Numbered from the stretch's first letter, positions 40,387 through 58,972 are shown. The stretch: DNA of 64,000 bases from an uncultured bacterium (GCA_964387845.1 CAYLXA010000001.1:96001-160000); one strand, 5' to 3'. The notes: a model not told the origin generated them from the sequence alone. Made by a program: numbers and translations.

Positions 40387-40818
40387 TTACTCCTCATGAA
40401 TATCACCCGGCCTGACATCTAACGGCTGGCGATACATAAAACCTTTTCCGACTTCGTGCCAATGATCGATCTTGTCTTCATCCAACTTCCAGCACAAATA
40501 AACGACTTTTCCGTCCATCAAGGAATAAAAATCAACGAGCCCCGTTTCCACATCTTTCAGAAGACAGCCAAACTCCTGAATTTTATCAATGGTTTCGTAA
40601 AAATCCGTCACGACATTTTGATGCTTTTTGACCAGGGACTCGATTTCTTTCTTCGAATTCGAGTTACCTGACCCGCTGACAATTTCGAGTGCATCAATCT
40701 GCGCTTCGATATGAACGGCTTGGCTTTGTTTTTCCTTTAACTGATGGATAAGATCTCTTAAAACGGGGATTAGCTGATTGGCTTCTTCAACTGTAAATAC
40801 CTTTAACTCATTATCCAT
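40387..40818 (-). CDS. DUF2203-family conserved hypothetical protein
   Basis: The 143-aa product has N-terminal coiled-coil-like segments and a C-terminal VVYLCWKLDEDKIDHWHEVGKGF motif typical of DUF2203. Confidence 0.55.
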   Translation of the reverse strand: MDNELKVFTVEEANQLIPVLRDLIHQLKEKQSQAVHIEAQIDALEIVSGSGNSNSKKEIESLVKKHQNVVTDFYETIDKIQEFGCLLKDVETGLVDFYSLMDGKVVYLCWKLDEDKIDHWHEVGKGFMYRQPLDVRPGDIHEE

Positions 40819-40961
40819 TCATGCCTCGGAACCGCTGATTTTTAGGATATCCTGACAATATATAGGAAGACCGGAAACCTGTTTCAAATATACAGCAAGG
40901 GACCCAGCCAATCAAGGGCTTTGTTACCTAACTGCTTTTAAAATTGAGTTTTCCGAAGATT

Positions 40962-41351
40962 TTAAGAACTATAAACAAGCCGACCGCCGAGATCGCTTGC
41001 CACCGAAACCAGAATGATTCCTAAGAGCGACCCAACTATCAAAATCAGCTTATAGCTGGCCTTCGCAGGATTCGCCTTATACCAATAAAATCCGCGCGCG
41101 GTATAAATAATAAACACGCAAACAGCCGCTACAAAATGATTCCGGATAGGGGGCGAAATTTCACCGGCATCCACATAACCCGCTATCATGGCAAGAACCA
41201 TGAGCGCGTAACCTGCTTTAAATGACAAAAACGCGAATTTCTTATAAGAATCGTCCTTCTTAAAATGCCAAAGACATAAAAGAAAGAATTCAAAGAAATA
41301 AAGCGCGATCGGAAAATGCACGGTCATCGGATGAAAATGAAGGTGCTCCAT
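40962..41351 (-). CDS. DUF2231-family small membrane protein
   Basis: The 129-aa product has four TM helices and the conserved N-terminal HPMTVHFPIAL motif. Confidence 0.55.
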   Translation of the reverse strand: MEHLHFHPMTVHFPIALYFFEFFLLCLWHFKKDDSYKKFAFLSFKAGYALMVLAMIAGYVDAGEISPPIRNHFVAAVCVFIIYTARGFYWYKANPAKASYKLILIVGSLLGIILVSVASDLGGRLVYSS

Positions 41352-41379
41352 AAAAGCCCTTTCTTAAGACGGTGCAGAA

Positions 41380-41655
41380 CTAATGGCTGTGTGAATGATT
41401 GTGTCCGACCACTTCTTTTTTAGTGCCATGCCCCAATATGGTAATAAATTTTTCAGGGTTTTTCTTAAACTTGTCAGAGCACATTTTGCAGCAAATACCG
41501 TAACGCTTGCCCTGATATTCCACAAATGATTTTCCGGAAACATCATCACCGCTCACGGGGCACATTTTATTTCCGGCGTCAATCAGTTCGGCTGCAAAAA
41601 GATTTGTTGAACCAAGTAACAATACAGTAAACATTGTTAAAATTATTTTCTTCAT
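41380..41655 (-). CDS. YHS-domain metal-binding periplasmic protein with a C-terminal His-rich tail
   Basis: The product has a signal peptide and a YHS motif CPVSG...YQGKRYGICCKMCSDKFKKNPEKF. It ends in HNHSHSH and sits immediately downstream of cusA. Confidence 0.7.
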   Translation of the reverse strand: MKKIILTMFTVLLLGSTNLFAAELIDAGNKMCPVSGDDVSGKSFVEYQGKRYGICCKMCSDKFKKNPEKFITILGHGTKKEVVGHNHSHSH

Positions 41656-44600
41656 GTCAAAGCTCCTTTCTGATTTAATTTTAATTCACGAGACTTCCAA
41701 ACCGCGTAAATCGCGGGATACACCAAAAGTTCGAGGATAAACGATGTCAACAGCCCACCGATCATAGGCGCCGCAATCCGTTTCATCACATCGGCACCGG
41801 CGCCCATCGTCCACATGATGGGAATCAAACCCATGAATGAAGTAACGACTGTCATCATTTTGGGCCTCACGCGCTTGACCGCTCCGTGGACCACAGCTTC
41901 ATCCAAATCCTCTTTGGTTTTCATTTTGCCGTTTTTGACCGCGTCTTGATACGCTAAATCTAAAAAGAGCAGCATGAAAACACCCGTTTCGGCATCGAGT
42001 CCCATTAGCGCAATCATGCCGACCCAAACAGCAATTGAAATATTGTAGTCCAGAATCCAAAGCAGCCAAACCGCTCCGATCAGCGAAAATGGGACGGCAA
42101 GCAAGACGATCCCTGTTTTCACCCATGATTTGGTATTGATATAAAGCAGGAAACAAATAATAAACAGTGTGAGCGGTATTACAATTTTCAAACGTTCTTT
42201 CACACGGATCATATTTTCATACTGCCCGCTCCAAAGCAGCGTGTAACCCGGCGTCAGCTTTAGTTCTCGATCGACGATTTTCTTCGCCTCATCAACATAG
42301 CTTCCAATATCGCGCCCTGTCATATCAACATATACGTACCCGGCCAACAAACCATTTTCATTTCGGATCATGGCTGGCCCGGAATTTAAGCGGATATCCG
42401 CAAGCTGCGCAAGCGGCACATGAGTTCCTGACGGCGTCGGCACAAAAACACGTTTTAGTTTTTCAATGTCATCCCGAAATTCACGTGAATAACGGACATT
42501 GACCGGATAACGTTCGCGGCCTTCGATAGTAGTTGTGATATTCTCACCGCCGATTGCAGTCATGATAACCAGCTGCGCATCATCAACTGAAAGCCCATAA
42601 CGCGCAAGTTCTTCGCGCTTCAAATCAAAATCCACAAAATAGCCGCCCGCCACCCGTTCCGCGTAGACGCTGCGTGTTCCCGGAACGTTTCGAAGAATCA
42701 TTTCAATATGCGTTCCGATTTCCTGGATCTTTTGAATATCATCGCCCAGGATTTTGATTCCGATCGGCGTTCGGACGCCTGTTGTTAGCATGTCAATCCG
42801 GTTTTTAATCGGCATCGTCCAGGCGTTTGTAGTCCCCGGAATTTTGAGCGCTTGATCCATCAGTTCAATTAATTCTTCGTGAGAAATACGCTCAGGCCAA
42901 ACACTTTGAAAAGGCCATTTGAAATGAGCCGGCAGCCACGAATGCCACCTTGGCTTGAAGCGCCATTCTTTTTCGGGCTTGAGCAGCACAACAGTTTCCA
43001 TCATGGAAAACGGCGCAGGGTCGGTCGAGCTTTCGATACGGCCGGATTTTCCGAACACACGCTCCACTTCGGGAAAACTTTTGAGGATTTTATCTTGTTT
43101 CTGTAAAAGTGCCTGAGCTTCGGTTACTGAAATTCCGGGCAAAGTGGTCGGCATGTAGAGAATGCTGCCTTCCCATAAGGGCGGCATAAATTCGGTGCCA
43201 AGACGCATATAAACCGGAATGGTTGTGAGCACCAATAAAAGCGCTGCGATAATTGTTTTCTTGCGGTGTCTTAGAACAAACCGGCACACCGGTTCATAAA
43301 TCTTAAATAAAACTTTGCTGACCGGATGTTTTTCTTCGGGATAGTAAGTGCCAACAAAAAGCGTGGTTGCCATTTTAGACAGCCATGTGAGCTTGATCCC
43401 CTCGCCCTTCCCTCGCTTCGAAGGAAAAAGATTGATGGTGAGGGGTTTGAACGGCTCCATGCGCGTAAAGAGCATCCGGATCGCAGGATCGAGTGTAATG
43501 GCCAAAATGGCGGCAATCGCCATCGCTAAATTCTTGGACCAGGCGAGAGGTTTAAAGAGGCGCCCTTCCTGATCCACTAAAGTGAAAATCGGCAAGAAGG
43601 CGACGGCAATCACAAGCAGTGAAAAGAAAATAGAGGGCCCGACTTCTTTTAACGCCTGAAGCCGGACTACATGGAAATCCCCTTTCCTACCGCCTTCTAT
43701 CCATTGCTCCAGCCGTTTGTATGCGTTTTCAACTTCTACGATAGCGCCGTCCACCAAAACACCGATTGAAATGGCGATGCCGGCAAGCGACATGATGTTG
43801 GATGTTAGGTTCATTCCGTTCAGAAGAATGAACGAAAGCAGCACCGAAATCGGAATGGTCACAATCGGAACAATCGCAGACGGAAAATGCCAGAGGAAAA
43901 TCATAATGATGATGCTGACAATAATCATTTCTTCAACAAGCTGATGTTTCAGCGTTTCAATCGCACGGACGATTAAATCCGACCTGTCGTAAAGCTCTAC
44001 CAATTCCACGCCTGGAGGAAATGAGGATTTCAATTCCTTAAACCGCTCCTTAACACGTTTGATGACTGTCAAAGCATTTTCACCGGAGCGCATGACGATG
44101 GTTCCTGTCACCACATCGCCCTCGCCGTTTAAGTCCGCAAGCCCGCGGCGGATTTCAGGCCCGATTGTCACAGTCCCGATGTGTTTCACCAAAATCGGCG
44201 TGCCTTTTTCATCGATACCGACTACAATATTTTCAAATTCATCAATTGTTTTCGCATAACCACGGCTCCGCACCATGTATTCCGCGCCTGAAAATTCAAG
44301 AAGCCTTCCGCCGACCTCCTGATTTCCTTTCCGGATCGCCTCTACCACGCGTGTGATCGGCATGTTGTAAGCCAAAAGCCGGTTTGGATCGATTGTCACT
44401 TGATATTGCTTCACAAATCCGCCGAGAGAAGCGACTTCGGCAACGCCCGGAACGCTTTGAAGGTTGTAGCGCAGAAACCAATCTTGAAAAGATCTTAATT
44501 CCTGGAGGTCGTGCTGCCCGGTTTTATCAACAATCGCGTATTGATAAACCCAGCCAACACCCGTCGCGTCAGGCCCAAGTTCGGTTTTGACACCGTCGGG

Positions 44601-45023
44601 AAGCTTTGGGATGATTTTGCTGAGGTATTCAAGCGTACGGCTTCTCGCCCAGTAAAGATCGGTACCGTCCTTGAAAATGACATAAACATAAGAAAATCCA
44701 AAATCCGAAAAGCCGCGGATTGCTTTCACATTGGGCGCTCCGAGCATCGCCGTCACGATCGGATACGTCACTTGATCTTCAATGATGTCGGGACTTCTAT
44801 CCCAGCGCGAATAAATAATGACCTGCGTATCCGACAAATCCGGAATAGCATCAAGCGGAATCCGCTTGAGCGACCAAATGGCTGCTAAAATGGCGCATCC
44901 AACAAGAATCAATACCAAAAATTTATTGTGCGCCGAAAATTCAATGATCTTCTCGATCACGCCTTCTTTTCTATTCGGATTAAGCTCCATGTTGATGGCC
45001 TCCGGCTCCGCCGATTTCTTCAA
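41652..45023 (-). CDS. cusA: CusA/CzcA-family heavy-metal efflux RND transporter
   Basis: The 1123-aa product has the HME-RND N-terminal consensus (FLVLILVG...DAIPDLSDTQVIIYS) and 12 TM helices. The start may be the internal MELNPN... at about 44990. Confidence 0.95.
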   Translation of the reverse strand: MKKSAEPEAINMELNPNRKEGVIEKIIEFSAHNKFLVLILVGCAILAAIWSLKRIPLDAIPDLSDTQVIIYSRWDRSPDIIEDQVTYPIVTAMLGAPNVKAIRGFSDFGFSYVYVIFKDGTDLYWARSRTLEYLSKIIPKLPDGVKTELGPDATGVGWVYQYAIVDKTGQHDLQELRSFQDWFLRYNLQSVPGVAEVASLGGFVKQYQVTIDPNRLLAYNMPITRVVEAIRKGNQEVGGRLLEFSGAEYMVRSRGYAKTIDEFENIVVGIDEKGTPILVKHIGTVTIGPEIRRGLADLNGEGDVVTGTIVMRSGENALTVIKRVKERFKELKSSFPPGVELVELYDRSDLIVRAIETLKHQLVEEMIIVSIIIMIFLWHFPSAIVPIVTIPISVLLSFILLNGMNLTSNIMSLAGIAISIGVLVDGAIVEVENAYKRLEQWIEGGRKGDFHVVRLQALKEVGPSIFFSLLVIAVAFLPIFTLVDQEGRLFKPLAWSKNLAMAIAAILAITLDPAIRMLFTRMEPFKPLTINLFPSKRGKGEGIKLTWLSKMATTLFVGTYYPEEKHPVSKVLFKIYEPVCRFVLRHRKKTIIAALLLVLTTIPVYMRLGTEFMPPLWEGSILYMPTTLPGISVTEAQALLQKQDKILKSFPEVERVFGKSGRIESSTDPAPFSMMETVVLLKPEKEWRFKPRWHSWLPAHFKWPFQSVWPERISHEELIELMDQALKIPGTTNAWTMPIKNRIDMLTTGVRTPIGIKILGDDIQKIQEIGTHIEMILRNVPGTRSVYAERVAGGYFVDFDLKREELARYGLSVDDAQLVIMTAIGGENITTTIEGRERYPVNVRYSREFRDDIEKLKRVFVPTPSGTHVPLAQLADIRLNSGPAMIRNENGLLAGYVYVDMTGRDIGSYVDEAKKIVDRELKLTPGYTLLWSGQYENMIRVKERLKIVIPLTLFIICFLLYINTKSWVKTGIVLLAVPFSLIGAVWLLWILDYNISIAVWVGMIALMGLDAETGVFMLLFLDLAYQDAVKNGKMKTKEDLDEAVVHGAVKRVRPKMMTVVTSFMGLIPIMWTMGAGADVMKRIAAPMIGGLLTSFILELLVYPAIYAVWKSRELKLNQKGALT

Positions 45024-46245
45024 GCGCAGATGTCAGGCGGCTTTCGGAATCAATTAAAAAATTTCCGCTTGTCACAGCCAGCTCGCCCTCTGACAAACCG
45101 TTTTTAATTTCATAAAACCGGTCGGTCTTCACACCAAGCGTGACTTCGCGCGGTTCAAACCGTCCATCCGGTTTCGAAACAAATACCACGTTTTTCTCTC
45201 CGGTCCTAAATACCGCCTCTTCCGATACGGCAAGCACATCGCCCAAATCAATTCGAAGCACCGCATTGACATACATTTGCGGTTTCAAAAAGCCTTCCGG
45301 ATTATCAAGCACAGCACGGATATTAATGGTTCTGGTCATCGAATCAATCACCGTATCCACAGCGCGGATAATGCCTTTCCATTTTTTTCCTGAAACAGCC
45401 GGGACTTCTACCTCGACCTCATTTCCGATTTTCACAAGCGGCATTTCATATTCATAAATCGGTGCATAAAGCCATGCGGTTCCGCCTGCTTCCGAATAAA
45501 GCAGTGAGCGGTCGGCTTTGCCTGCGGTTTCCAATTCTTGAATAATCTCATCGCTTAAGCCCATCAATTTCAATTTAATGCGCGCAGATTCCACAAGCTT
45601 CGCGGCTTGTTCCTTGATTTCCTGGATGGTACCGCCCTCTGCTTTTTTGAGCGATTCACGGGCTTGCAAATATTCTTCTTCGGCTTGGTAAAGCACGGGG
45701 TCATAGGCAATACGGCCTGCCGTGCGGATGGTTTTTGTCATCGGTATTTTTTTGACCGCCTCTGTCTTGACCCCGATGAGCTGCTGTTTTTCCGGATCCA
45801 ATTTGACATTGGCATAGCCGTCTGGCAGCAAATCTTTAATCACAACACCTAAATCTTCGCCGCAATGCGGACATTTTCCGGCGCGCGCAATTTCTTCTGT
45901 CATTGCAATCATGCATTGGCCCATTTTGCACTTATGAAGCAGGCAAATTTCACCCGGCTTCATACTCATGAGTTCCTTTAGCGTCATTTCACGCGGCTGA
46001 TTGGATCCGTGGGGCATATGCGCCTTTTCAGATTCGCCTCGCTTCACCAGGTTCATGTTGCATATCGGACAGCTGCCAGGCCGGTCAGACGTATAAGTCG
46101 GATGCATCGGACAATAATAAAGTGGCTTGCTTGCAGTTTTATGTGTTTGATTATGCATCTTTGGCGCTTGACGCATCCAAACTGCAGCGCCTACTATCGC
46201 GATGACAATTACCAAAAGCGCAATCAGTGTTTTATTTTTGTTCAT
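44980..46245 (-). CDS. cusB: efflux RND periplasmic adaptor (CusB-like) with an N-terminal CPMHP heavy-metal-binding domain
   Basis: The 421-aa product has YYCPMHPTYTSDRPGSCPICNMNL, the metal-binding domain fused to CusB-like MFPs, followed by biotinyl-like and beta-barrel MFP domains. Confidence 0.85.
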   Translation of the reverse strand: MNKNKTLIALLVIVIAIVGAAVWMRQAPKMHNQTHKTASKPLYYCPMHPTYTSDRPGSCPICNMNLVKRGESEKAHMPHGSNQPREMTLKELMSMKPGEICLLHKCKMGQCMIAMTEEIARAGKCPHCGEDLGVVIKDLLPDGYANVKLDPEKQQLIGVKTEAVKKIPMTKTIRTAGRIAYDPVLYQAEEEYLQARESLKKAEGGTIQEIKEQAAKLVESARIKLKLMGLSDEIIQELETAGKADRSLLYSEAGGTAWLYAPIYEYEMPLVKIGNEVEVEVPAVSGKKWKGIIRAVDTVIDSMTRTINIRAVLDNPEGFLKPQMYVNAVLRIDLGDVLAVSEEAVFRTGEKNVVFVSKPDGRFEPREVTLGVKTDRFYEIKNGLSEGELAVTSGNFLIDSESRLTSALEEIGGAGGHQHGA

Positions 46246-47501
46246 TGCTTCCCCTCTTTCGTTTGAGTCAACACGGTTAAGCCGCAGCAGCGTAGAAGAT
46301 CAACGTAAGCTTTTAGTGATTCTGTGTGAAATTGAATTTGCGCGAGTTTTGCGTTGAAGTAAACCCGCTCGCTATCGAGTAGATTTAAAAAATCAACATT
46401 TCCCGCCTCATAACCTGCCTGATCGGCAGAAAGCGCGAGCTTTGCCTGCGGAACAATTGCGGTTTCATAAAGTTCCGACATTTTGAGTGCGGTTTGGTAT
46501 CGATGATAAGAATCTTTGACTTCCCGGAAGGTTTTATTTTTTGTTTCCAACAAGTCAGCTTCGCGCGCCTCTTCAAGAAGTTTCGCTTCCTGGATTTCGG
46601 GAATAATCCGGTTTTGCCAGACCGGAAGATTGAAACGGATCGGCATCATCCATTCGCTATCGCCCTCCTTCGGTTTGATCAGCCGCGCTCCGATATCCAG
46701 ATCCGGAATATAGGAAAGCTGCGCGAGACGTTTCGTGTGAGCGGCCTTTTGGACTTCAGCTTCGGCTGCCTGAATTTCCTGCCGGTTTTCAACAGCAATA
46801 TTAATAAGCTCGACCAATGAATAATCCAAGACCGGCTTTTCGGGAAGGACCGCTTTTCCGATCGGCAGCATTGGGTCTCGGTTTAACAGCGCATTCAATA
46901 CGGCGACTACACTTTCGCGCTTTTGCTCAAGCTCATATAATTTTTCTAATGATAAAGAAAATTCCGCCTGAGCTTTTGCGACATCTCTTTGGTCACCCGC
47001 AAGATTGGAATACCGCGCGGAAGCTATGGACTCAAACCGTTTAAGCAATTCCTTAATTTCATTAATCGTCTCTAGCGAAGCATCGACATAATAGAGATCG
47101 TAATAAGCATCCGTCAGTCGCAGCAAAAGGTCGCGCTCGACAATTTCTTGTTTTAGCGATGCAATATCAGCGTCGTTCTTCGCAATTTTTCCTTTTTGAT
47201 ATAACTTAACTGGAAACGGAATCGCTTGTGAAACCATGTATTCACTCTCAGCAGTTCCTGGCGTGATTTCGGCCATCGGGTCCGGAAGTGCCGTCTCCTG
47301 CCAAATTTTTTTCCTGGCGGCAAGCAACTCGGCTTTAGCGCTAATGAGTTCCGGGTTCTGTTTGAGCGCAAGCTCGATTAAATCATCCAGCCGCACTTCC
47401 TGAAGCGGAGCGCTCGCCTCGTTTTCGGCGATTACATTTCCGGAAACTGAAATCGCCATCGCGACTAACACACACATTAATTTGTATAAAAAGTGGTCCA
47501 T
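46242..47501 (-). CDS. TolC-family outer-membrane efflux protein (CusC-like)
   Basis: The protein has two OEP repeats. The likely start is the internal MDHFLYKLMCVLVAMAIS signal peptide. The track ORF extends to 47543. Confidence 0.8.
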   Translation of the reverse strand: MDHFLYKLMCVLVAMAISVSGNVIAENEASAPLQEVRLDDLIELALKQNPELISAKAELLAARKKIWQETALPDPMAEITPGTAESEYMVSQAIPFPVKLYQKGKIAKNDADIASLKQEIVERDLLLRLTDAYYDLYYVDASLETINEIKELLKRFESIASARYSNLAGDQRDVAKAQAEFSLSLEKLYELEQKRESVVAVLNALLNRDPMLPIGKAVLPEKPVLDYSLVELINIAVENRQEIQAAEAEVQKAAHTKRLAQLSYIPDLDIGARLIKPKEGDSEWMMPIRFNLPVWQNRIIPEIQEAKLLEEAREADLLETKNKTFREVKDSYHRYQTALKMSELYETAIVPQAKLALSADQAGYEAGNVDFLNLLDSERVYFNAKLAQIQFHTESLKAYVDLLRCCGLTVLTQTKEGKQ

Positions 47502-47586
47502 TTTAAACTCCTGTTGATCAAAATAACTGTAAAATCTCCACACGCCGCTCGTTAAAGGTTTCGGCGCAAAGAAGTATTTTGAGAAA

Positions 47587-47964
47587 TCAAATCAGGAGCT
47601 GAACGGTCGCAAGCTTGGATAAGCTTGGCGGAGATATTTCGGAATGATTTAAAACGCTTGAAGTAAAGCCGGGTACAAAAACTGCTTTGGCCTCTGGTGA
47701 AATGGTTTTAAAACCGGAAACCAATTTTTCTACTTCAAAAGAATGAACGCCTGCAGCTTGATCCTTATTAATCACCATCGGCTTGTCGGTGCAGGCATTC
47801 TCGCCCGGGCAGCAGCAAGAATCGGCTTTGGTTATAATCACTTCATTCGCCGCCGCTTGTGCTGTGGGACAGTGACACAACGCCGCACACATAAAAACAA
47901 ATGTCGGCACTAAAAACACTGCTAACAAAATTCGTAATATTTTATTGCCGCATTTGGTTTTCAT
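47587..47964 (-). CDS. small secreted cysteine-rich hypothetical protein (possible metal-binding)
   Basis: The 125-aa product has a signal peptide and cysteine clusters CHC and ADSCCCPGENAC. It is the first gene of the cus operon direction. No homolog was recognised. Confidence 0.4.
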   Translation of the reverse strand: MKTKCGNKILRILLAVFLVPTFVFMCAALCHCPTAQAAANEVIITKADSCCCPGENACTDKPMVINKDQAAGVHSFEVEKLVSGFKTISPEAKAVFVPGFTSSVLNHSEISPPSLSKLATVQLLI

Positions 47965-48297
47965 AAAAACGCCTCAAAATCTAGTAAAAAACTAACACAG
48001 ACTTTGTTTTTCTGTCAAGAACCTCATGCCATTTATCGTCCTCTTTTGCCTAAAATATCAGCTGGCTGTTAAAAATTTTTTAGGTGTAAGGTGTGAATCA
48101 ATTTTTGCCTTATTTTCGCCCTCCAAAATCAATAAACCAAGCGAAAATGACTTTCTAAAACGCTGAAGAAAGTCAAATCGCTTTATCTGTCAAAATTTGA
48201 CAACACGTAATTGCCGTGCGACGCTCAAATTAGGTGCGTGAAAGGCTTTTGTTCGTAAAAAACAAAATGACGACACAAACCAGACCCTACAACAACC

Positions 48298-51200
48298 GTG
48301 ATGGACAATATGAAAAAGAGTACAAATTTTTTTGTACCTTTATTTAAATCTTTTCTAACTGGCTTACCAAAACGCGTTGTTACAGTTCTAGCCACTTTCT
48401 TCCTAGTCATTAACCAAGTCATTATTCCGGTTCCTAATTCCTTACTTCCCACGCTTAGCCCGGCAATCGCACAAGCTTCGGAAGATAACGGTACGACGGT
48501 GTCGATAGAAGCCTCCGGCGACGCTTATCTATCAAAGCAAAATCCGGATCAAAATTATGGCATTACGGATCTTATTACCGTAGACGGGCAAGACATTAAT
48601 GGAGACCCGAACACTGAGCTACGCGGACTGATCAAATGGAATCTTAGCCAATTGCCGGAAGGCAGTGTGGTCCAATCTGCCAGAATCATCCTTCATCTCG
48701 TCAACCACAGCGGCGGCAATGTTTATACCTTGCACAAATCTACGAAAGACTGGCACGAGGCGGATGTGACATGGAACAATGCAAGTGCCGACTTTGAATC
48801 AGCCTCTCTCGGCATACTGTCATCCAATATTTTAGGATTGCACAGCATCCCGTTGAATAGCGACGGAATTGCAGCCATTCAATCTTGGATCGATAATCCG
48901 GAAACCAATTTTGGATTTTTAATCCTCCCTGACGCAAACAGCACCAACGGCTTTGAATTTAAATCAAAAGATTCTTCTATTAAACCCGTCCTTGAAGTGA
49001 CAGTCACATTTCCTCAGGATGCTAGTTACAACGTTGAGATGTCAGTGAGTGGCGACGGCGCTATTTTCGTGAGCCCGGAACAGCCATTTGGATTTAACGA
49101 TAACGTTACGTTTACGGCGGAAGCCAACGATGGCTGGCAATTTGAAAGGTGGGAAGGCGATCTTGGCGGAGTGGAAAATCCGGCAACGATTCAAATTCAA
49201 AACAACATGAATGTGATGGCTGTTTTTCAATCTCTGGCTCCAGCTGAACCGCAAATGGGAATGTCGACTTGCGGTAACGGCGTGCTCGAAAATGGCGAAC
49301 AATGCGAGGGATCAAATCTGGGAGGTCAAAGCTGCTCAACTCTCGGGAACGGTTCAGGAACTCTTGTGTGTGCAAGCGACTGCACATTCAATATGGGCAG
49401 TTGCGCATTTGCGTGGCCGGCCGAGGCATTTGCATCAGCCGAAAACTTAACTTACATTGATTCTACCGGCTTTGGGGTTAATTTAAGCGGCGCCGCTTGG
49501 AATCCGGTATCACGAAAACTTTGGCTCGTTCGAAATGGCGGACCCGGCGGATCAAAATTGTGGGTATTGAGAGAAAATGGCAGCGGCGGATTTGAAGTTG
49601 ATTATAAAAATGGGCTGCGCGGTGAATGGTCCAATTTTAATGATTTAGAGGCTATTGCGCTGGCTGATTTTAATAATCCCGATGTGGTTTATTTATTAAT
49701 AGAAGGCGAAGAGCGCATTAAGAGATACAACATATCGACCTACGGCACGGCCATTCTTGAACGAAATTGGAACACAAGTCCGCATTTACCTTTAAATGGC
49801 GGGAGCGGCGCTGAAGCGCTTGCTTTTATTCCCGATTCATTTTTGACTGCGCAGGGCTTTGTAGATCCGGCCGGCAATCCGCGCACAAGTCAAAACGGAA
49901 TGGGCGGCTTGATGTTTGTCGGTCATCAAAACGGCGGACGGATTTATGTGTTCGACTTAAATCCTAATAATGACTCTTTCACCTATGTTGGCGCTTATCG
50001 AACAAACTATTCTGAAACTGCAGATCTGGCCTTTGATCGTTCAACCGGTTACTTGTATGTTTTTCATGGCGCCAATCATAATCATACTGAAGTGGTGTCT
50101 CTGGCTTCAACAGTAAACGGAAGTGAGCGAAAGCTTGTCACGCTGGTTGATTATAATCGCCCAACCGGAAGCGCAACAAACAGCAATATGGAAGGCATTG
50201 CGGTTGTTGAAACATCTGATTGTGCGGATGGAAAACGAGATTTCTTTTTGACGATTGATGACGGCGGCGCTGATTCCCTGTTCCGCTTCCGTAATTTTCC
50301 GTGCGGCTTGGCACGCAACAAAGCGCCTGTTGTGAATGCCGGATCCGATCAAACCATTACATTCCCGAACGCCGCTGCATTAAATGCAAGCGCATCCGAT
50401 GATCGTTTGCCCAATGGAACTATTACAACAACGTGGACACAAATTGGATTTGTGCCTGCGCCAGGTGTTTCCGGAAGCGGTGTCGCTACATTTGATGATT
50501 CAACCGCGTTAGCAACAAACGTTAACTTTGACTTGGCCGGCGATTACACGCTCCGCATGACAGTCACCGATGGCGAACTCTCAGCCGCGGACGATGTGAT
50601 TGTAACTGTCGATGAGGCAGCACGGCCTGTTACGTTTACCATTAATGCCTCGGCTGGATCTAACGGGTTTATTTCACCGATTGGAGAAGTTATTGTTGAT
50701 TCAGGCGCTAATCAAACATTCACAATCGCGCCAAATGCCAATTATCACATTGCCAATGTATTAGTAGACGGGGCTTCCGTAGGCGCGGTTTCAAGTTACA
50801 CATTTTCAAACGTAACGGCGAATCATACCATCGCGGCCAGTTTTGAAGTGAATACTTATACGATTGACTCCTCCGCGGGATCCAATGGTTCTATCTCACC
50901 CGCCGGTGTGACGACAGTGAATCATGGCGGTAGTCAAACCTTCACCATGACACCGAGCACAGGCTATCACGTAGCTGATGTGTTGGTGGATGGTGCATCA
51001 GTAGGTGCCGTGTCTAGCTATACCTTCAGCAATGTGACGGCTGATCATACGATTGAGGTGAGTTTTGCAGCAAGCAGTTTCACCATCACAGCTACAGCCG
51101 GCACTAATGGTTCTATCTCGCCAAGTGGTGATGTGGATGTTTCAGCCGGAGATGATCAGGTGTTTACGATAACGCCTAATTCTGGATTTCAAATTCAGAA

Positions 51201-54060
51201 CGTGACGGTTGATGGGCAGCCCGCAGGCGTTCTTTCAACCCATACATTTAGTAATGTCACCGCCAATCACACGATTCACGCTTCTTTTGTAGCAATAGAT
51301 CCTGTGAGAGATACCTACCTCCGGCAAAATACACCAACCACCAATTATGGAAGTGCAACCAGCGTCAATGTAGATGGCGATGAACCGGCAGGAACGGGAC
51401 ACGACGTGTTTGGTCTGTTGCGTTTTAACGTAGCACCTATTCCTGCTGGAAGCATCATTGATGCAATCGAATTAAGATTAAACATCACGAATGACACGCC
51501 GCACACTTACAGAATCTATGAAGTGAAGCGCCCTTGGTCTGAAGATCAGGCTACATGGAACCAAGCAGCAGCCGGTATGCCGTGGCAGGTTGCAGGCGCA
51601 AAAGGGGCCGAAGATCGTGGAGTAATTTTAGCAAATATAGGGCCTCTGGCTCTCGGACAACAGACCATTCTTTTGAATGACGCGGCTAAAAATATAATTC
51701 TCGGCTGGGCCAATAATCCTGCAAATAATCACGGCCTTATGATTGCAGACGAGGCAAGTACAAACGGTTTTGATTTTGCTTCCTTTGAATCGGCAACACC
51801 GCCACAACTCATTATCACCCATCGCCCAGGCTATACAATGACAACCAACGTCAATGGCAATGGGTCAGTATCAAAGAATCCGGATCAACAATATTACACA
51901 AATGGTTCAAATGTTACTTTAACCGCTAACGCAGGAGCCAACTCTGTATTCACCGGCTGGTCGGGTGACGCAACGGGAACCACCAACCCGCTTTCCGTTT
52001 CCATGAATAGCGATAAGAATATAACCGCTAACTTTACTATCAGAACCTATACACTCACGGCGTCAGCCGGTGCAAATGGTTCTATCTCACCCGCCGGCGT
52101 GACGACTGTCAATCATGGAGCGAGCCAGACTTACACCATGACACCGGCAACGGGTTATCACGTAGCCAATGTATTAGTAGACGGGGCTTCCGTAGGCGCG
52201 GTTTCAAGTTATACGTTTAGCAATGTCACAGCGGCTCACACGATCTCTGTCTCGTTTGCAATTAACACTTATACAGTCACCACCACGGCTACTTCAAACG
52301 GCACCATTTCTCTTTCGCCTAATCAAGCTTCGTATAATCATGGTTCAACGGTTACTGTGACCGCAACACCGAATAGCGGCTACACCTTCGCTAACTGGAC
52401 CGGTAGTCTCTCAGGTAGCGTGAACCCGGCCACACTCACGATGGACAGCAATAAAACCATCGGAGCGGTGTTCGCACAGATTCCGACGTTCACGATTACC
52501 CCGTCTGCGGGATTAAACGGTTCGATCTCTCCCGATACCATGGTCAATGTAATGGAAGGCGAGGATCAAACCTTCACCATCACGCCGGCGGCGGGTTATC
52601 ACATTGAAGATGTCTTGGTCGATGGCACCTCTGTTGGCGCAGTCGCAAGCTATACCTTCAGCAATGTGACGGCAAACCATACGATTGCAGCCAGTTTTGC
52701 GGTAAATACCTTCGCATTGTCGGCTTCTGTTTCAGGCAATGGCTCTATTTCAAAAAACCCGGACCAACCATACTACAACAACGGCTCTTCAGTGACTCTC
52801 ACTGCGAATGCAGGAGCTGATTCTGTATTCATCGGCTGGTCGGGCGATGCTTCAGGAACTGCTAATCCACTTTCGGTCACGATGAACGGCGATAAAAATA
52901 TTACGGCTAACTTTGCCGTTCGAACTTATTCATTGACCGCATCCGTTGAAGGAAGCGGCTCCATATCACCTTCAGGAGTTACATCGGTCAGCCACGGCGG
53001 GAGCCTAACTTACACGATAACCCCGGCAGCCGGTTATCGGATCCAATTTGTGAAAGTGGACGGCGTTTCGGTTGGCGCCGTTGAAAGCTATACGTTCAAT
53101 AACGTTACCGCCAACCATACGATTGCAGCAACTTTTTCAGTGAACACGTTCATTGTCTCTGCTTCTAACGGCAGTAACGGAAATATTTCACCCGTCGGAA
53201 ATACTCCGGTTAATGAGGGTGCTGATCAAACCTATGTGATTACTCCTGATTCAGGCTATGCTATTGAAGACGTGCGTGTAGACAATCAGTCGATGGGTGC
53301 AATTCCAAGCTACACCTTTAGTAATGTGACCGCCAATCACACAATTTCAGCAAGCTTCACCATGATTAGGCGCGCGTTAACCATTAGCACCAACCGCGGG
53401 CTTGGCGGAGCAGTCATTATCAATCCGGACAGCCCGGACGGCACTTATCTGCACGGCACGGAAGTAACCTTGACGGCTATTGCAAACCCCGGAAATATTT
53501 TCTCGGGATGGAGCGGAGACGCGGCGGGTTTGATTAATCCAGTCACAATCACCATGGACGCAGATAAAAATGTAACGGCTAATTTCAGCATGATCACTTA
53601 TTCGATAGAAGTTGAGACGACAACCGGCGGCGCGGTAGAAGTAAGCCCTGAAGGCCCACACTATTTGGGAGATGAAATTACACTGACAGCCACGCCGGAC
53701 TCAACTCACACCTTCAATGGATGGAGCGGCGACGTTACCGGTTCTGAAAATCCGATCTCAGTGACCGTAACGGGAAACATGAACATTGCGGCAAATTTTG
53801 CACCGATTACTTATACGCTCAATATAACCACAATCGGAAACGGAACCGTCACAAAAAGCCCGAATATGACGGATTACCCGGCAGGCACATCGGTAACCTT
53901 GACCGCGAACCCCGCGCGTTTCTGGAATTTTCTGCGCTGGACAGGAAACGCTTCGGGAACCAATCCGGTTATTACAGTTGTCATGGATGGCAACAAAAAC
54001 ATTCAGGCACGCTTTAAGCAGGGCCTAAGTCCATTCAGCGGCGGCGGCCCGGCATCGTAA
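48298..54060 (+). CDS. giant secreted surface/adhesin-like protein (1920 aa) with two DNRLRE-like domains, a Myxococcus-type cysteine-rich repeat, a PKD-like domain and about 15 tandem InlB B-repeat (Listeria/Bacteroides repeat) domains
   Basis: The product has a signal peptide. DPNTELRGLIKWNL and VFGLLRFNV lie in the DNRLRE-like regions. CGNGVLENGEQCEGSNLGG...C is the cysteine-rich repeat. APVVNAGSDQTITF...TVTDGELSAADDVIVTV is PKD-like. Repeated ...GSISP.G...V..G..QT.T.TP..GY.......DG.S.GAV.SYTFSNVTA.HTI...F units fill the rest. Confidence 0.85.
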   Translation: MMDNMKKSTNFFVPLFKSFLTGLPKRVVTVLATFFLVINQVIIPVPNSLLPTLSPAIAQASEDNGTTVSIEASGDAYLSKQNPDQNYGITDLITVDGQDINGDPNTELRGLIKWNLSQLPEGSVVQSARIILHLVNHSGGNVYTLHKSTKDWHEADVTWNNASADFESASLGILSSNILGLHSIPLNSDGIAAIQSWIDNPETNFGFLILPDANSTNGFEFKSKDSSIKPVLEVTVTFPQDASYNVEMSVSGDGAIFVSPEQPFGFNDNVTFTAEANDGWQFERWEGDLGGVENPATIQIQNNMNVMAVFQSLAPAEPQMGMSTCGNGVLENGEQCEGSNLGGQSCSTLGNGSGTLVCASDCTFNMGSCAFAWPAEAFASAENLTYIDSTGFGVNLSGAAWNPVSRKLWLVRNGGPGGSKLWVLRENGSGGFEVDYKNGLRGEWSNFNDLEAIALADFNNPDVVYLLIEGEERIKRYNISTYGTAILERNWNTSPHLPLNGGSGAEALAFIPDSFLTAQGFVDPAGNPRTSQNGMGGLMFVGHQNGGRIYVFDLNPNNDSFTYVGAYRTNYSETADLAFDRSTGYLYVFHGANHNHTEVVSLASTVNGSERKLVTLVDYNRPTGSATNSNMEGIAVVETSDCADGKRDFFLTIDDGGADSLFRFRNFPCGLARNKAPVVNAGSDQTITFPNAAALNASASDDRLPNGTITTTWTQIGFVPAPGVSGSGVATFDDSTALATNVNFDLAGDYTLRMTVTDGELSAADDVIVTVDEAARPVTFTINASAGSNGFISPIGEVIVDSGANQTFTIAPNANYHIANVLVDGASVGAVSSYTFSNVTANHTIAASFEVNTYTIDSSAGSNGSISPAGVTTVNHGGSQTFTMTPSTGYHVADVLVDGASVGAVSSYTFSNVTADHTIEVSFAASSFTITATAGTNGSISPSGDVDVSAGDDQVFTITPNSGFQIQNVTVDGQPAGVLSTHTFSNVTANHTIHASFVAIDPVRDTYLRQNTPTTNYGSATSVNVDGDEPAGTGHDVFGLLRFNVAPIPAGSIIDAIELRLNITNDTPHTYRIYEVKRPWSEDQATWNQAAAGMPWQVAGAKGAEDRGVILANIGPLALGQQTILLNDAAKNIILGWANNPANNHGLMIADEASTNGFDFASFESATPPQLIITHRPGYTMTTNVNGNGSVSKNPDQQYYTNGSNVTLTANAGANSVFTGWSGDATGTTNPLSVSMNSDKNITANFTIRTYTLTASAGANGSISPAGVTTVNHGASQTYTMTPATGYHVANVLVDGASVGAVSSYTFSNVTAAHTISVSFAINTYTVTTTATSNGTISLSPNQASYNHGSTVTVTATPNSGYTFANWTGSLSGSVNPATLTMDSNKTIGAVFAQIPTFTITPSAGLNGSISPDTMVNVMEGEDQTFTITPAAGYHIEDVLVDGTSVGAVASYTFSNVTANHTIAASFAVNTFALSASVSGNGSISKNPDQPYYNNGSSVTLTANAGADSVFIGWSGDASGTANPLSVTMNGDKNITANFAVRTYSLTASVEGSGSISPSGVTSVSHGGSLTYTITPAAGYRIQFVKVDGVSVGAVESYTFNNVTANHTIAATFSVNTFIVSASNGSNGNISPVGNTPVNEGADQTYVITPDSGYAIEDVRVDNQSMGAIPSYTFSNVTANHTISASFTMIRRALTISTNRGLGGAVIINPDSPDGTYLHGTEVTLTAIANPGNIFSGWSGDAAGLINPVTITMDADKNVTANFSMITYSIEVETTTGGAVEVSPEGPHYLGDEITLTATPDSTHTFNGWSGDVTGSENPISVTVTGNMNIAANFAPITYTLNITTIGNGTVTKSPNMTDYPAGTSVTLTANPARFWNFLRWTGNASGTNPVITVVMDGNKNIQARFKQGLSPFSGGGPAS
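50600..53900 (+). repeat. tandem in-frame coding repeats (InlB B-repeat units of about 225 nt) with long identical nucleotide stretches
   Basis: The stretch 'aatgtattagtagacggggcttccgtaggcgcggtttcaagtta' occurs identically at about 50757 and about 52170. Many other near-identical segments are present. Confidence 0.8.
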
Positions 54061-54093
54061 TTACATATTGAGTATTTCATACCTGATATTTCC

Positions 54094-54459
54094 TCAAAAA
54101 AGCGAAAAAGTCAGAAGCCCGAACGAAACCGCGACAAGCCCTAGAAGCCGGACTGCAAGCGCAGGCATTCCGGCGTAATGTTCCATAAATCCCTTCACCT
54201 TCTCGATATCGACCGCAAAAATAATGATGCCGCTCGTCAGAAACAAAACACCGAGCGCTGCGGCCGCCATCGGAATCGCGCTTTTGGATGAACTGAGCAG
54301 CAATAAAATACCGACGAAAAGGCGCAGAAAACCCGCATAATAAATCCGCTTTCCCTGGCTCATAAAATCAAAAATTTTACGGGTTACATTCGGAGAAACC
54401 ACAATCGTAAGCCCTAAGCCCGCCATCACTACTGCGAGCAATTTAATAATCGCGATCAT
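54094..54459 (-). CDS. hypothetical small membrane protein (4 predicted TM helices)
   Basis: The 121-aa product is strongly hydrophobic. No family was recognised. Confidence 0.4.
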   Translation of the reverse strand: MIAIIKLLAVVMAGLGLTIVVSPNVTRKIFDFMSQGKRIYYAGFLRLFVGILLLLSSSKSAIPMAAAALGVLFLTSGIIIFAVDIEKVKGFMEHYAGMPALAVRLLGLVAVSFGLLTFSLF

Positions 54460-54490
54460 AAAGCCTCCTTTGGTTAGGCTTTCATTCTAA

Positions 54491-55012
54491 TTACATTTTC
54501 CGGCTGTCGTAGGCCCAATGCAGAATAGCCTGGCGCTGGCGCTTGCGGCATTCCCAGTCGCCGCGAACGCAGTTCTTCCGGACCTGGACAATATGGCGCT
54601 TAATGGCAAGCCAGCGCTTAATTTGCCGGTCATCTTCCCCGGGAATCCGCCGGCCCATGAAGTAACGGCAATACCACTGAAACCAGCCGCGCGGGTCTTT
54701 ATCGCAGATCCACCTTTTCTTGCGCCATACTTTGAGCGGCTGGCTTGCGTTCACGCCGAAAAAATTGAGCTTGGCGTCATGTTTTTCCGGACAAAGTTTT
54801 GCCTGCCGGAACCAATCCGCCGGAAATTCCTTCCGGCAATCCGTCATGTATTTGCCGCCGAAAATACCGAGCCGGAGCATTTCCTTCGGCGTCAGTTCGG
54901 GTTTAAAGCGCGGATCGAAATTTTCTCCCGCCGGCTCCGTCAAAACGTAGCGGTAATTTTTCTGCATCTTGTCATTGACGGTAACGGTTTTACGCCGCTT
55001 TTTTTGCGCCAT
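54491..55012 (-). CDS. conserved hypothetical cytosolic protein (W/R/C-rich; PRGWFQWYCRYFMGRR motif)
   Basis: The 173-aa product has protein-like composition. The overlapping plus-strand ORF 54518..55030 looks like a low-complexity antisense artefact. Confidence 0.45.
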   Translation of the reverse strand: MAQKKRRKTVTVNDKMQKNYRYVLTEPAGENFDPRFKPELTPKEMLRLGIFGGKYMTDCRKEFPADWFRQAKLCPEKHDAKLNFFGVNASQPLKVWRKKRWICDKDPRGWFQWYCRYFMGRRIPGEDDRQIKRWLAIKRHIVQVRKNCVRGDWECRKRQRQAILHWAYDSRKM

Positions 55013-56468
55013 GCTCGGCCCTGTGTTTGATTGCGTTGATCATTCCCGCAAATACAAAATGATGAATCCAAAGAAGTGCAAACCAATACAGGATACCAAA
55101 AAGGCCTTTCGGAATGAACCGCGCTGTCTGCGACAGCATGGAGGATTGTGCGCTTGTCTGTGTTATTTTAAATTCCAAGACCGCAAAGCCAGGTAATTTC
55201 ATTTCCGCCTGGAGAACCAATCTTTTCTCCGGCTCCACCTTTGCGATACGCCAAAAATCAACCGCATCTCCCTGACGCAATTCGGCCGGATCCGTCCTTC
55301 CCTGTCGAAAACCGACGCCTCCGGCCAATCTGTCAAGCCAACCTCTCAACCTCCACAAAAAATCAGCGTGATACCAGCCCGTATGGCCTCCGATTTTTGA
55401 CAAAAGAGCCCAAATTTCTTTGACGGAAACTTGAATTGGAAGCGACCGGCTATCCACAAGCATCGTTCCGCCCGACCACTTTTGATCTGTCGGCCAAACC
55501 CATTCGGCAGGGCGAAATTCATCCGGCACTTTTTCATCTTCAACCAGCCGGTGCCGACTTCCTTCGATCGCGAGCCTAATGCTCTCGCGGGCGCCCAACA
55601 GCCGCTGCGGGATTATATTTTGAATAGAAGTATCACGGACCACCACGCGGTTCCTCAATCCCTCAGCAAGCGGAATAGCCAGCGACCGGTGGATCGGCGT
55701 TACAAAATGAATCCAGTAGGAACTCAGTTTGGGCGTCAAGACAGGGACCGGAATCACAAACCGCTTTGCGAGACCGGCTTCTTCCGCATAGATTTCCATG
55801 AGCTGCCGGTAGGTCACGACATCCGATCCGCCGACTTCAAAAGTTTTTCCCGCTGTATTCGGACTCTCGAGACTTTCGGCAAGGTAGTAAAGCACATTCC
55901 GGATAGCAATCGGCTGGCTTTCGGTGCTGACCCAGCGCGGCGTCACCATCGCAGGAAGCCGTTCGACTAAATAGCGCAAAATTTCGAAAGATGCGCTGCC
56001 GGTTCCGATAATCATCGCTGCGCGGAAAATCGTCGACGGAACCGGGCCTGAGGTGAGGATTTTTTCCACTTCGCGGCGCGACTTCAAATGCTTACTAAGA
56101 TTCTCGTTTTCCTCACCAAGCCCGCCTAAGTAAATAATTCTCTCAAGCCCGGCTTCGCCGGCCGCCTTTGCCATATTCTGCGCAGCTTGACGGTCCCTCG
56201 ATTCAAATTCCTTGCCGCCGGGAGCCATCGAATGGACCAAATAAAAAGCCGCGCCACAGCCCCGCGCAGCTTTGAGGATAGAATCATATTGAAGAACATC
56301 GGCCGAGGCGACTTCAATTCTGGAATGACGAAACCATGAGTAGGCTTTTAATTTTTCTGTCGACCTGGCCGCAGCCCGGACCCGGAAGCCCCGCTCGAGC
56401 AAAAACGGCACAAGCCGGGCGCCCACGTATCCGGTCGCGCCAGTCACTAAAATAAATTGATTTTTCAT
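54990..56468 (-). CDS. NAD(P)-binding SDR/NmrA-like domain fused to a C-terminal DUF2867 domain
   Basis: The N-terminus has VTGATGYVGARLV (a Rossmann GxxGxxG). The C-terminal roughly 150 aa match the DUF2867 pattern, a common SDR-DUF2867 architecture. Confidence 0.75.
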   Translation of the reverse strand: MKNQFILVTGATGYVGARLVPFLLERGFRVRAAARSTEKLKAYSWFRHSRIEVASADVLQYDSILKAARGCGAAFYLVHSMAPGGKEFESRDRQAAQNMAKAAGEAGLERIIYLGGLGEENENLSKHLKSRREVEKILTSGPVPSTIFRAAMIIGTGSASFEILRYLVERLPAMVTPRWVSTESQPIAIRNVLYYLAESLESPNTAGKTFEVGGSDVVTYRQLMEIYAEEAGLAKRFVIPVPVLTPKLSSYWIHFVTPIHRSLAIPLAEGLRNRVVVRDTSIQNIIPQRLLGARESIRLAIEGSRHRLVEDEKVPDEFRPAEWVWPTDQKWSGGTMLVDSRSLPIQVSVKEIWALLSKIGGHTGWYHADFLWRLRGWLDRLAGGVGFRQGRTDPAELRQGDAVDFWRIAKVEPEKRLVLQAEMKLPGFAVLEFKITQTSAQSSMLSQTARFIPKGLFGILYWFALLWIHHFVFAGMINAIKHRAEHGAKKAA

Positions 56469-56499
56469 CGTGCCCTTACGATTGTCAAAACTCAGGCTG

Positions 56500-57504
56500 C
56501 TAATTTTTTCCGACCAATTCGGGACTGACCATCATTTCTCTACGGACTTTTTTGTGCTGATAGTCGTCAATATTCTGCAGAGTCGTATGGGCAATATTGG
56601 CCATCGCGGAGTCGGTGAAAAAGGCCTGATGACCCGTAATTAGAACATTCGGAAATGTGAGCAGCCGCGCGAAAATATCGTCCTGAATCACATGATCGGA
56701 CAAATCCTCGAAGAAAAGGTCCGCTTCTTCTTCGTAGACATCGAGACCCAAATACCCGATTTTGCCCGACTTAAGCCCTTTGATGACTTCGCGCGTATCA
56801 ATCAAGGCGCCGCGGCTTGTGTTAATCAACATGACCCCCGGCTTCATCCGGCTCACCGCCTGGCCGCCGATCATATGCTTCGTTTCGGGTGTAAGCGGCA
56901 AATGAAGGGAGATGATGTCGCTTTTATTGAAAAGTTCGTCCAAAGCCACATACCGGGCGCGACATTCCGGATTCCGCATAGGATCATAGGCAATCACATC
57001 CGTGCTAAAACCCATCATGATATTCGCAAAGATATTTCCGATTCGGCCCGTCCCGATCACGCCTACGGTTTTTCCCGTCAATTCAAATCCGAGTAATCCT
57101 TCAAGCGAAAAATTTCCCTCATGGATCCGGTTGTGTGCGCGATAAAGTTTTCGGTTCAGTGCCAAAATCAACGCAACCGCGTGCTCGGCAACACCATGAG
57201 GCGAATAGGCGGGCACCCGTACAACGGTCATGCCCAAATCTTGTGCTTTTTTGATATCGACGTGATTGAAACCGGCGGAACGGAGCGCTAAAAGTCTCAC
57301 GCCATTCTGATGAAGCAAGCGCAAAACATCGGCGTTTAGTTGGTCATTGACAAATACACAAACCGCCTCAAAGCCGAATGCCAGTTTGCAGGTTTCGAGC
57401 GTTAATCGCGGTTCAAAATAAACGATCTTGTGCCCAAATTCCGCATTCGCCTTGTCGAAAAACTGCCGGTCATACGCTTTCGTACTGAAAACAGCTATTT
57501 TCAT
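56500..57504 (-). CDS. ldhA: D-lactate dehydrogenase / D-isomer-specific 2-hydroxyacid dehydrogenase
   Basis: The start is at the internal [12 protein letters not shown]. The product has [12 protein letters not shown]-binding and catalytic R/E/H residues typical of D-LDH. The track ORF extends to 57576. Confidence 0.85.
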
Positions 57505-57633
57505 ACCTCTATTCTCCTCCAAATCATATTGAATGCAATCTCTCTTTTGGAGAATAGAATAAAAAAATGGGGTCAACCCGCAGTGATTCTGATCACGCGG
57601 AAAAAAGAGGACAAACGCTTGAAGCTGAATAAC

Positions 57634-58962
57634 TTATGAGCCGCGCTTGGCTGATTGAGCCTGGAGCTGACCTTGGCGTGCGTAATCAATAGCTTCAGCT
57701 AATATGCGCGCAACTTCCTGAGGCGCGTGAAAACCCATTGAATTCTCGGCTGAAACAAAATCAAGCCGCCACTGGGCTTTTCGGTGCATTTCAAGAGCCG
57801 GCTGTAATTCTTCTTCACCTGCGCCGCGTTTTTTGGCCGCAACGATTTCATCGATCAGTGCCAACACGGCAGCCTCGGCGCGGTCCATCAACACTTGTGT
57901 TTTTTCCTGAATAGATTCGGCTCGGTCAAGCATTTCGCGCTCCGTAAAATGATGGCACGGAAGGCACGACCTCGACACATTCAAAAGCGGGCTGCGAATA
58001 TGATGATCCGTCACTTTTAGCGCGCCTTCACGCTGATAAGGCATGTGGCAATCGGCGCACGAAACACCGCTGCGCGAATGGATGCCCTGATTCCACATTT
58101 CAAATTCGGGGTGCTGGGCTTTCAGCATTTTCGCGCCCGTTTCGGCATGCACCCAATCCGTGTGGCCGACTTGCTCATAATAAGCTTCAATTTCTTCAAC
58201 TTTTAACCCATTCGCCCACGGATAAGTGAGCATTTTCTCAGGGCCCGCAAAATAATATTCAACATGGCATTGAGCACAGACAAACGTGCGCATCTCCTGC
58301 CGGGTTGCCATGGTGTTTGGGTCATAATTTTGAATGCCTTCGCGCTCTTTAACTTTTTTAATTGCATTCATAAATCCCGGACGCGTGACACGCAGGTCCA
58401 TCGTTTTCGGATTGTGGCAATCCGTACACGCGATCGGATGTTGGACATACTTCCATGCCTCCTCAAGCGGCATTTTATTCACCTTCGCAAATCCCGCCTG
58501 GATGTCCCCTTCACCGACTAATTCATAAACTTGTTTCATGCCGCCTGCGTGGCATTGGAGGCAAGCGCCCGGCTGTTTGAACTCTTTTGTCCGGAGCGTT
58601 TCCTGCTGATCCGACAAGGAATACGCATGGCCGCGCTCTTCCCGGTAATCAACACCGAATGCGTAACCCGCGAAGAAACGTTTCCACGCAGGATCTTCAT
58701 CCAGTTTCGAGAAAGCTTCGCTGCCGCCGTAGCGCGTGCGCGCCGTATCAACCGTGCGGATATAGCCGTCATACTGGCGCGGATAATTTTTTGCCCAAAT
58801 CGCGGGATCAATTGTTTCTTCCGTCAATTCGACGACGGATATGTTCCGCCACTTGGCTTCTTCTTTTCTTTCGCGAATATTCAAGAGCAGAGACGTAATA
58901 GCCCATGTAACTGCAGACGTCATCACAATAATAAGAAAGTAAACCGCCATTTTTTTGAACAT
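57634..58962 (-). CDS. nrfA: cytochrome c nitrite reductase, pentahaem catalytic subunit (ammonia-forming)
   Basis: The 442-aa product has an N-terminal anchor/signal and five CxxCH motifs (CLQCH, CTDCH, CAQCH, CADCH, CLPCH). It also has NrfA-typical spacing and Ca-site residues. Confidence 0.9.
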   Translation of the reverse strand: MFKKMAVYFLIIVMTSAVTWAITSLLLNIRERKEEAKWRNISVVELTEETIDPAIWAKNYPRQYDGYIRTVDTARTRYGGSEAFSKLDEDPAWKRFFAGYAFGVDYREERGHAYSLSDQQETLRTKEFKQPGACLQCHAGGMKQVYELVGEGDIQAGFAKVNKMPLEEAWKYVQHPIACTDCHNPKTMDLRVTRPGFMNAIKKVKEREGIQNYDPNTMATRQEMRTFVCAQCHVEYYFAGPEKMLTYPWANGLKVEEIEAYYEQVGHTDWVHAETGAKMLKAQHPEFEMWNQGIHSRSGVSCADCHMPYQREGALKVTDHHIRSPLLNVSRSCLPCHHFTEREMLDRAESIQEKTQVLMDRAEAAVLALIDEIVAAKKRGAGEEELQPALEMHRKAQWRLDFVSAENSMGFHAPQEVARILAEAIDYARQGQLQAQSAKRGS

Positions 58963-58972
58963 GCCTGGCTCC

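Follow-up and report, generated by a model that had tools for sequence, protein, structure and literature searches.

A predicted exported repeat protein with an unnamed five-bladed propeller in an uncultured bacterium

What kind of protein is encoded by the long open reading frame (ORF) at 48298..54060 (+) in a 64,000-nucleotide (nt) stretch of DNA from an uncultured bacterium (GCA_964387845.1, CAYLXA010000001.1:96001-160000), and what might it do outside the cell? The window is this whole stretch, positions are counted from its first letter, and an earlier note, written from the sequence alone, had described the product as a secreted, adhesin-like protein of 1920 residues. We found the ORF to be uninterrupted over 1920 codons from a GTG at 48298, and the gene is real, as the earlier note had it, because curated domain matches span nearly its full length. 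It codes for a protein of about 1,900 residues of extracellular type. The reading that we favour, with a probability of roughly 0.5, is that of a secreted or surface protein aimed at a polymer, in which a conserved propeller would be the working head and a series of repeats the spacer.

The central module, absent from the domain list of the earlier note, is a five-bladed beta-propeller. Its AlphaFold2 model, built from an alignment of 59 sequences, reached a predicted local distance difference test score (pLDDT) of 94.9 and a predicted template modelling score (pTM) of 0.93, contained 20 strands and was superposable on the five-bladed fold of YjiK. Foldseek placed the C-terminal domain of YjiK (3qqz) first, and the nearest folds were YjiK, bacterial glutaminyl cyclases, NHL and GH43 five-bladed propellers. 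An inner-strand motif recurs five times (NLSGAAW, DLEAIAL, GAEALAF, TADLAFD and NMEGIAV), and 28 columns are invariant in the 59 sequences, including D449, E451, E469, E506, H543 and Q544, with D553, D580, H590, E632 and D654 as further invariant residues. At the level of sequence, comparison with the PDB gave nothing significant for either the single sequence or a profile, and the best PDB match of the family profile, again YjiK, was itself non-significant (E 0.83). The window propeller did not match SdiA-regulated (PF06977) or Phytase-like (PF13449) at E up to 1; weak matches to these two families appeared in 6 and 13 of the 59 relatives, respectively. We conclude that the propeller is an unmodelled branch of the superfamily that holds YjiK/SdiA-regulated and Phytase-like proteins. 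Assignment to the glutaminyl cyclases was rejected, as only the fold is in common and no cyclase model was matched in the Pfam and NCBIfam scans.

The propeller belongs to a widespread family. An indexed search returned 264 proteins (E up to 1e-3), of which the 120 listed showed 42-62% identity, and an exhaustive search returned 565 cluster representatives. The relatives come from Planctomycetota, Myxococcota, Acidobacteriota, Eisenbacteria, a Spirochaete and a metagenome-assembled genome (MAG) of the Methanosarcinales, and the propeller, 50-60% identical across phyla, is the best-conserved module of the protein. Most relatives are "hypothetical proteins" of 350-500 residues in which the propeller follows straight after a signal peptide. 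Elsewhere it is fused to CBM96, to DUF4215 (immediately upstream), to PKD, F5/8 type C and Big_9/cadherin-like domains, and to a type IX secretion system (T9SS) sorting domain, partners that show a recurrent extracellular, carbohydrate-oriented theme. A group of proteins of about 1100 residues (P0005-P0011) carries the same propeller at the N-terminus, with 60-64% identity over the aligned domain, followed by a tail of Ig-type repeats and MopE/thrombospondin-like Cys-Asp motifs that is unlike the tail of the window protein. For the propeller itself, metal-dependent catalysis is slightly favoured over pure ligand binding, a lean that follows from the conservation across phyla, the acidic and histidine invariants, the small secreted relatives and the partners of carbohydrate-binding type.

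The remaining non-repeat modules are mostly of named families. Two DNRLRE modules matched the CBM96 (PF24517) and DNRLRE (NF033679) models along their full length and scored well over the curated thresholds (26 and 34 bits, respectively), and the K319L-like PKD domain was likewise above its Pfam cut-off, so that the DNRLRE and PKD-like assignments of the earlier note both held. The founding member of CBM96 binds alginate and shares about 30% identity with DNRLRE domains, which are also found in polysaccharide lyases (PMC9971899). The full-length Pfam scan omitted CBM96, even though the modules alone score 64-67 bits; with the Pfam tool used, full-length scans of long repetitive proteins can lose real domains. 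The "cysteine-rich repeat" proposed before proved to be a single six-cysteine unit, and its similarity to known families stayed below threshold both for DUF4215 (E 0.09, 13.5 bits, Pfam cut-off 27) and for myxo_disulf_rpt (E 0.1, 12.4 bits, cut-off 20.8). The likeness is one of motif, with indirect support from one relative (P0286), in which a significant DUF4215 match lies immediately before the propeller. Pfam matches to MlaD, ThiI and GCV_T_C were taken as spurious; they had zero independent stretches and lay inside the A-type repeats described below.

The repeats belong to the divergent InlB B-repeat family Flg_new_2 (PF18998), which the whole-protein Pfam search matched in 12 stretches (E 3e-114, 373.5 bits), and the InlB B-repeat assignment made earlier is thereby upheld at the level of sequence. 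Using our own hidden Markov model (HMM), we counted 14 units, seven A-type and seven B-type, rather than the "about 15" given before, in the order B, then A A A, then DNRLRE-2, then B A B A B A A B B B. The B-type units scored 37.8 bits and more against Flg_new_2, and four of the five A-type units tested scored 27-31 bits and one 22.2, against a cut-off of 23.6; units of the two types align in register. The AlphaFold2 model of unit A4 (pLDDT 97.8) is all-beta with eight strands, and its Foldseek search against the PDB gave no match with E <0.29 and, in the top 50, no InlB entry and hence not the solved B-repeat of Listeria, the method being weak on 74-residue domains.

The description of the units as near-identical and sharing long identical DNA stretches did not stand. 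Amino-acid identity was 49-84% between A-type pairs, 32-72% between B-type pairs and 15-44% between the types, and DNA identity of same-type pairs was at most 73%. Tandem Repeats Finder found no array in the gene, and the longest exact DNA repeats within it measured 47, 26 and 23 nt, the first occurring as a single pair. Two subtypes do exist, but they alternate only in the middle of the array; the two consensus strings offered for them are real, but they represent only the closest pairs, A2/A4 (84% amino-acid identity) and B1/B3 (72%), and had been over-generalised. Consensus strings at the protein level thus masked at least 27% DNA divergence between units, and a reading from sequence only can overstate repeat identity.

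The same architecture was found in only one of 5.8 billion proteins, P0002, which has 1700 residues and is 69% identical along the first 1000. Scans of genome collections, and two metagenome scans that returned only the known JGI contig, gave no further orthologues, and three other loci (L028-L030) have only PKD and repeat units in common with the window protein. The orthologue holds 11 units in the order B, then A B A A, then DNRLRE-2, then B A A B B B. Orthologous pairs (window/P0002) are B0/b0, A1/a1, A3/a3, B1/b2, A4/a4, B4/b3, B5/b4 and B6/b5; a B-A block (B2/b1, A5/a2) lies on opposite sides of DNRLRE-2 in the two proteins; and the additional units of the window protein are A6, A7, A2, which is close to A4, and B3, which is close to B1. 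Between lineages, the array is plastic over evolutionary time. The predicted variation in repeat number is therefore seen as 14 against 11 units between lineages, whereas its supposed basis in long shared DNA was largely wrong, and the comparison of the window with its one orthologue gave no sign of strain-level slippage or phase-type variation. Coordinates are collected in the table.

Features of the gene and its surroundings (window coordinates; P0002 is the orthologous protein and L031 its locus)
Feature	Residues	Position	Strand	Basis or remark
Whole gene		48298..54060	+	1920 codons, GTG start
N-terminal export segment (putative)	1-59	48298..48474	+	read from sequence; conserved in P0002
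DNRLRE/CBM96-type beta-sandwich module 1	75-235	48520..49002	+	NF033679 94.9 bits; CBM96 67.2 bits
Isolated B-type unit B0	244-310	49027..49227	+	Flg_new_2 37.8 bits; own HMM
Six-cysteine unit, motif CGNGvLEnGEqCEG	320-370	49255..49407	+	DUF4215/myxo_disulf_rpt-like, sub-threshold only
Five-bladed beta-propeller (297 residues)	373-669	49414..50304	+	no Pfam/NCBIfam model
K319L-like PKD domain (PF22352)	681-771	50338..50610	+	Pfam 35.4 bits, cut-off 27
A-type units A1-A3	779-998	50632..51291	+	Flg_new_2 / own HMM
DNRLRE/CBM96-type module 2	1005-1174	51310..51819	+	NF033679 90.1 bits; CBM96 63.8 bits
Ten units B1 A4 B2 A5 B3 A6 A7 B4 B5 B6	1179-1906	51832..54015	+	Flg_new_2 / own HMM
C-terminal tail KQGLSPFSGGGPAS (14 residues)	1907-1920	54016..54057	+	conserved in P0002 as KQGLAGFGGNTPGPAS
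Intergenic block with two perfect dyads		48148..48202	.	L031 9857-9911; alignment
47-nt exact repeat, copy 1, inside A1		50752..50798	+	second-assembly contig ends 50781, 30 nt in
47-nt exact repeat, copy 2, inside A4, same register		52165..52211	+	contig starts 52182, 30 nt before copy end

The two ends of the protein bear on where it would act. A protein of 1916 residues in the public collection (P0001) is identical to the product starting at ATG 48310, and ATG 48301 is another alternative start, so that the uncertainty of the start is at most four codons; GTGATGG and ATGAAAAA around the candidate starts are kept in the orthologous locus. The N-terminal segment has a basic n-region and the hydrophobic stretch VVTVLATFFLVINQVIIPV, and cleavage may occur at AQA/SE; the segment could act either as a signal peptide that is removed or as a signal anchor. 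All modules beyond it are of extracellular type, and the general picture of a secreted multi-module protein that had been drawn for this gene is sustained. We infer that the protein is probably Sec-exported and extracellular or surface-displayed in a diderm host.

In the arrangement that we favour, the two CBM96/DNRLRE modules would probably bring the protein to a polysaccharide or another surface polymer, the disulfide-knotted cysteine unit and the conserved propeller would together form the working head, and the PKD domain and the 14 Flg_new_2 units would serve as a semi-rigid spacer, whose unit number would shift over evolutionary time through duplication, loss and block movement. Several points weigh against this arrangement. 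The window propeller matches no curated model in Pfam or NCBIfam, and to our knowledge no YjiK/SdiA-regulated or Phytase-like propeller has an experimental function, so the activity proposed for the head is a guess. Stand-alone propeller genes, compared at three loci, share no neighbourhood that hints at a substrate. The possible cleavage site is unusually distant from the hydrophobic core, and the protein could for this reason be tethered to the inner membrane and face the periplasm. The C-terminal tail shows no recognised anchor or sorting signal, and surface display and release therefore fit the sequence alike.

The rival that survives best takes the protein as a non-catalytic adhesin, in which the propeller and the CBM96-type modules would be lectin-like heads on a repeat stalk, attaching the cell to a particle or to another cell, either partner or prey. 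We regard it as a possible, tentative reading, and the adhesin-like label given in the earlier note is plausible. The kinds of module present are all common in adhesins, NHL-type and YjiK-type propellers include binding modules, and a unit count that differs between orthologues is common for adhesin stalks. The host also fits: the homoserine dehydrogenase encoded in the window is 59-70% identical to named homologues, all from Omnitrophica/Omnitrophota (other, closer sequences reach 75-96%), and on these homologues we place the host most probably in the Omnitrophota, for which a use of large proteins in cell-cell adhesion has been proposed (PMC10066038). However, the head keeps 50-60% identity in several phyla and in one archaeal MAG, while adhesin tips usually diverge fast; most propeller relatives are small, secreted and without stalk or anchor; and the window protein lacks a detected anchoring signal. 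An enzyme or a specific receptor head thus fits this conservation at least as well as an adhesin does.

The genes upstream raise a link with metals. Head-to-head with the gene lies an operon for an exported, cysteine-rich protein of 125 residues, an outer-membrane efflux protein (OEP), a membrane fusion protein with a heavy-metal-binding domain and an RND pump, matched in Pfam as OEP, HlyD_D23 with HMBD, and ACR_tran; this is the composition of a heavy-metal RND efflux operon of CusCBA type, and the divergent transcription from a cus operon noted before is thereby borne out. The efflux genes have the same order, and the divergent arrangement is kept, in the orthologous locus L031, where the downstream side differs. 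In the alignment of the two intergenic regions, one block is invariant and its flanks are variable, and the block holds in both loci two perfect dyads, TGACTTTCT-N10-AGAAAGTCA and TGTCAAA-N-TTTGACA, which may act as operator or promoter elements of the big gene, of the efflux operon or of both. We read the first dyad as flanked by a -35-like ATGACT and a -10-like TCAAAT, which stand 20 nt apart on the + strand, a geometry of MerR type. It seems unlikely that all of this belongs together, that is, that the propeller represents an unnamed family (about 565 clusters) of secreted enzymes acting on a surface glycan or phospho-ester polymer, here carried on a stalk of repeats and induced together with copper efflux by way of the MerR-like dyad.

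Still less likely is a functional link of the gene itself to copper or heavy-metal homeostasis, in which a metal-responsive envelope protein would be co-regulated with the Cus-like operon through these dyads. The maintained head-to-head arrangement, the invariant block and the geometry of the first dyad speak for it, as does the Pfam "Cu-binding_MopE" motif of some propeller relatives. The MopE motif, however, resembles calcium-binding thrombospondin-type repeats, which counts against the metal link; the Pfam and NCBIfam scans detected no metal-binding domain in the protein, and stand-alone propeller genes are not beside efflux genes. We saw no MerR-family or other regulator gene beside the locus, and scans for consensus promoters and terminators in the vicinity returned nothing of use. 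Since the synteny comes from two closely related genomes only, plain inheritance may account for the linkage to the efflux operon.

Finally, we considered whether the gene model could be an assembly artefact, with its repeat count collapsed or expanded or with a chimeric gene. The two copies of the 47-nt repeat are 1413 nt (471 codons) apart, so that recombination between them would stay in frame. Two Logan contigs from run SRR15237813, a run that may or may not have supplied the reads of the window, match window positions 37587-50781 and 52182-62674 at 100% identity; together they take in roughly three quarters of the gene, with eight complete units, and positions 50782-52181 (1400 nt) lie outside them. 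The contigs break 30 nt inside the repeat copies, which is the behaviour of a de Bruijn graph at a repeat longer than k if, as we assume, Logan was assembled with k = 31. The expectation that the gene is prone to misassembly was therefore right for this one pair, but elsewhere both assemblies agree base for base; the assembly hazard is real yet limited to the single 47-nt repeat and does not extend to the whole array. Although only the flanks of the in-frame block between the exact pair are confirmed by the second assembly, an artefact is very improbable: the repeat is shorter than a normal read, the remaining units are divergent enough to be unique, and the core of the orthologue runs in the same order (a3, DNRLRE-2, b2, a4) through this block. 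The 47-nt stretch occupies corresponding positions in A1 and A4, two units that are only 66% identical in DNA overall, and looks like a short gene-conversion tract.

Some observations concern the surroundings alone. The first gene of the efflux operon (47587-47964, -) codes for the 125-residue protein, which carries a signal peptide and clusters of cysteines (CHC, CCC..C). This protein has a 124-residue counterpart in L031, matched no family, and may bind metal in the periplasm as a partner of the pump. On the downstream side, L031 has a pseudouridine synthase gene directly after the big gene (15409-15963), and about 8 kb separates the two in the window (54094-62617). This stretch holds two small unknown ORFs and genes for DUF2867/NmrA, a 2-hydroxyacid dehydrogenase, an NrfA-type cytochrome c552 and an Exo_endo_phos protein, and the difference is an insertion or deletion between the two lineages. 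Farther away, an ORF of 3617 residues (24964-35817, -) has a calcineurin-like phosphoesterase as its sole Pfam match, at residues of about 2888-3104.

Taken as a whole the protein is fairly ordinary, one more large modular exported repeat protein that changes little; what is mildly new is the unnamed propeller family. That family is conserved, can be folded confidently, is absent from the curated libraries and recurs beside carbohydrate-binding modules, so that a Pfam entry and biochemical screens of its members would be reasonable.

Compared with known systems, the protein resembles "InlB B-repeat-containing" proteins (PF18998 / TIGR02543 List_Bact_rpt) in its tandem units of about 70 residues, which exceed the Pfam and NCBIfam thresholds, within a long exported protein, and units of both the A-type and the B-type recur in many other such proteins. 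It departs from the typical members in its A-type units, which score near the Flg_new_2 cut-off (22-31 against 23.6 bits), and the combination of two DNRLRE modules, a propeller and repeats is known from one other sequence. The characterised CBM96, the alginate-binding module TM6-N4, sits in an alginate lyase (PMC9971899); unlike that enzyme, the window protein has no detectable lyase or glycoside hydrolase domain. Omnitrophota are reported to have, as a typical trait, large ORFs with adhesion-type domains, which have been discussed in connection with a host-dependent lifestyle (PMC10066038), and the window gene is like them in being large, with a predicted exported product and adhesion-type domains. 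It differs from the "giant" ORFs of this phylum (>20 kb, PMC10066038) in being 5.8 kb long, without multiple transmembrane helices and mostly annotatable. The propeller shares its fold with the bacterial (plant-type) glutaminyl cyclases (3mbr, 3nok) at 11-14% identity. From E. coli YjiK (3qqz), to which it is 12% identical, it is set apart by membership of a family of about 300 residues with its own invariant set and a C-terminal cysteine pair.

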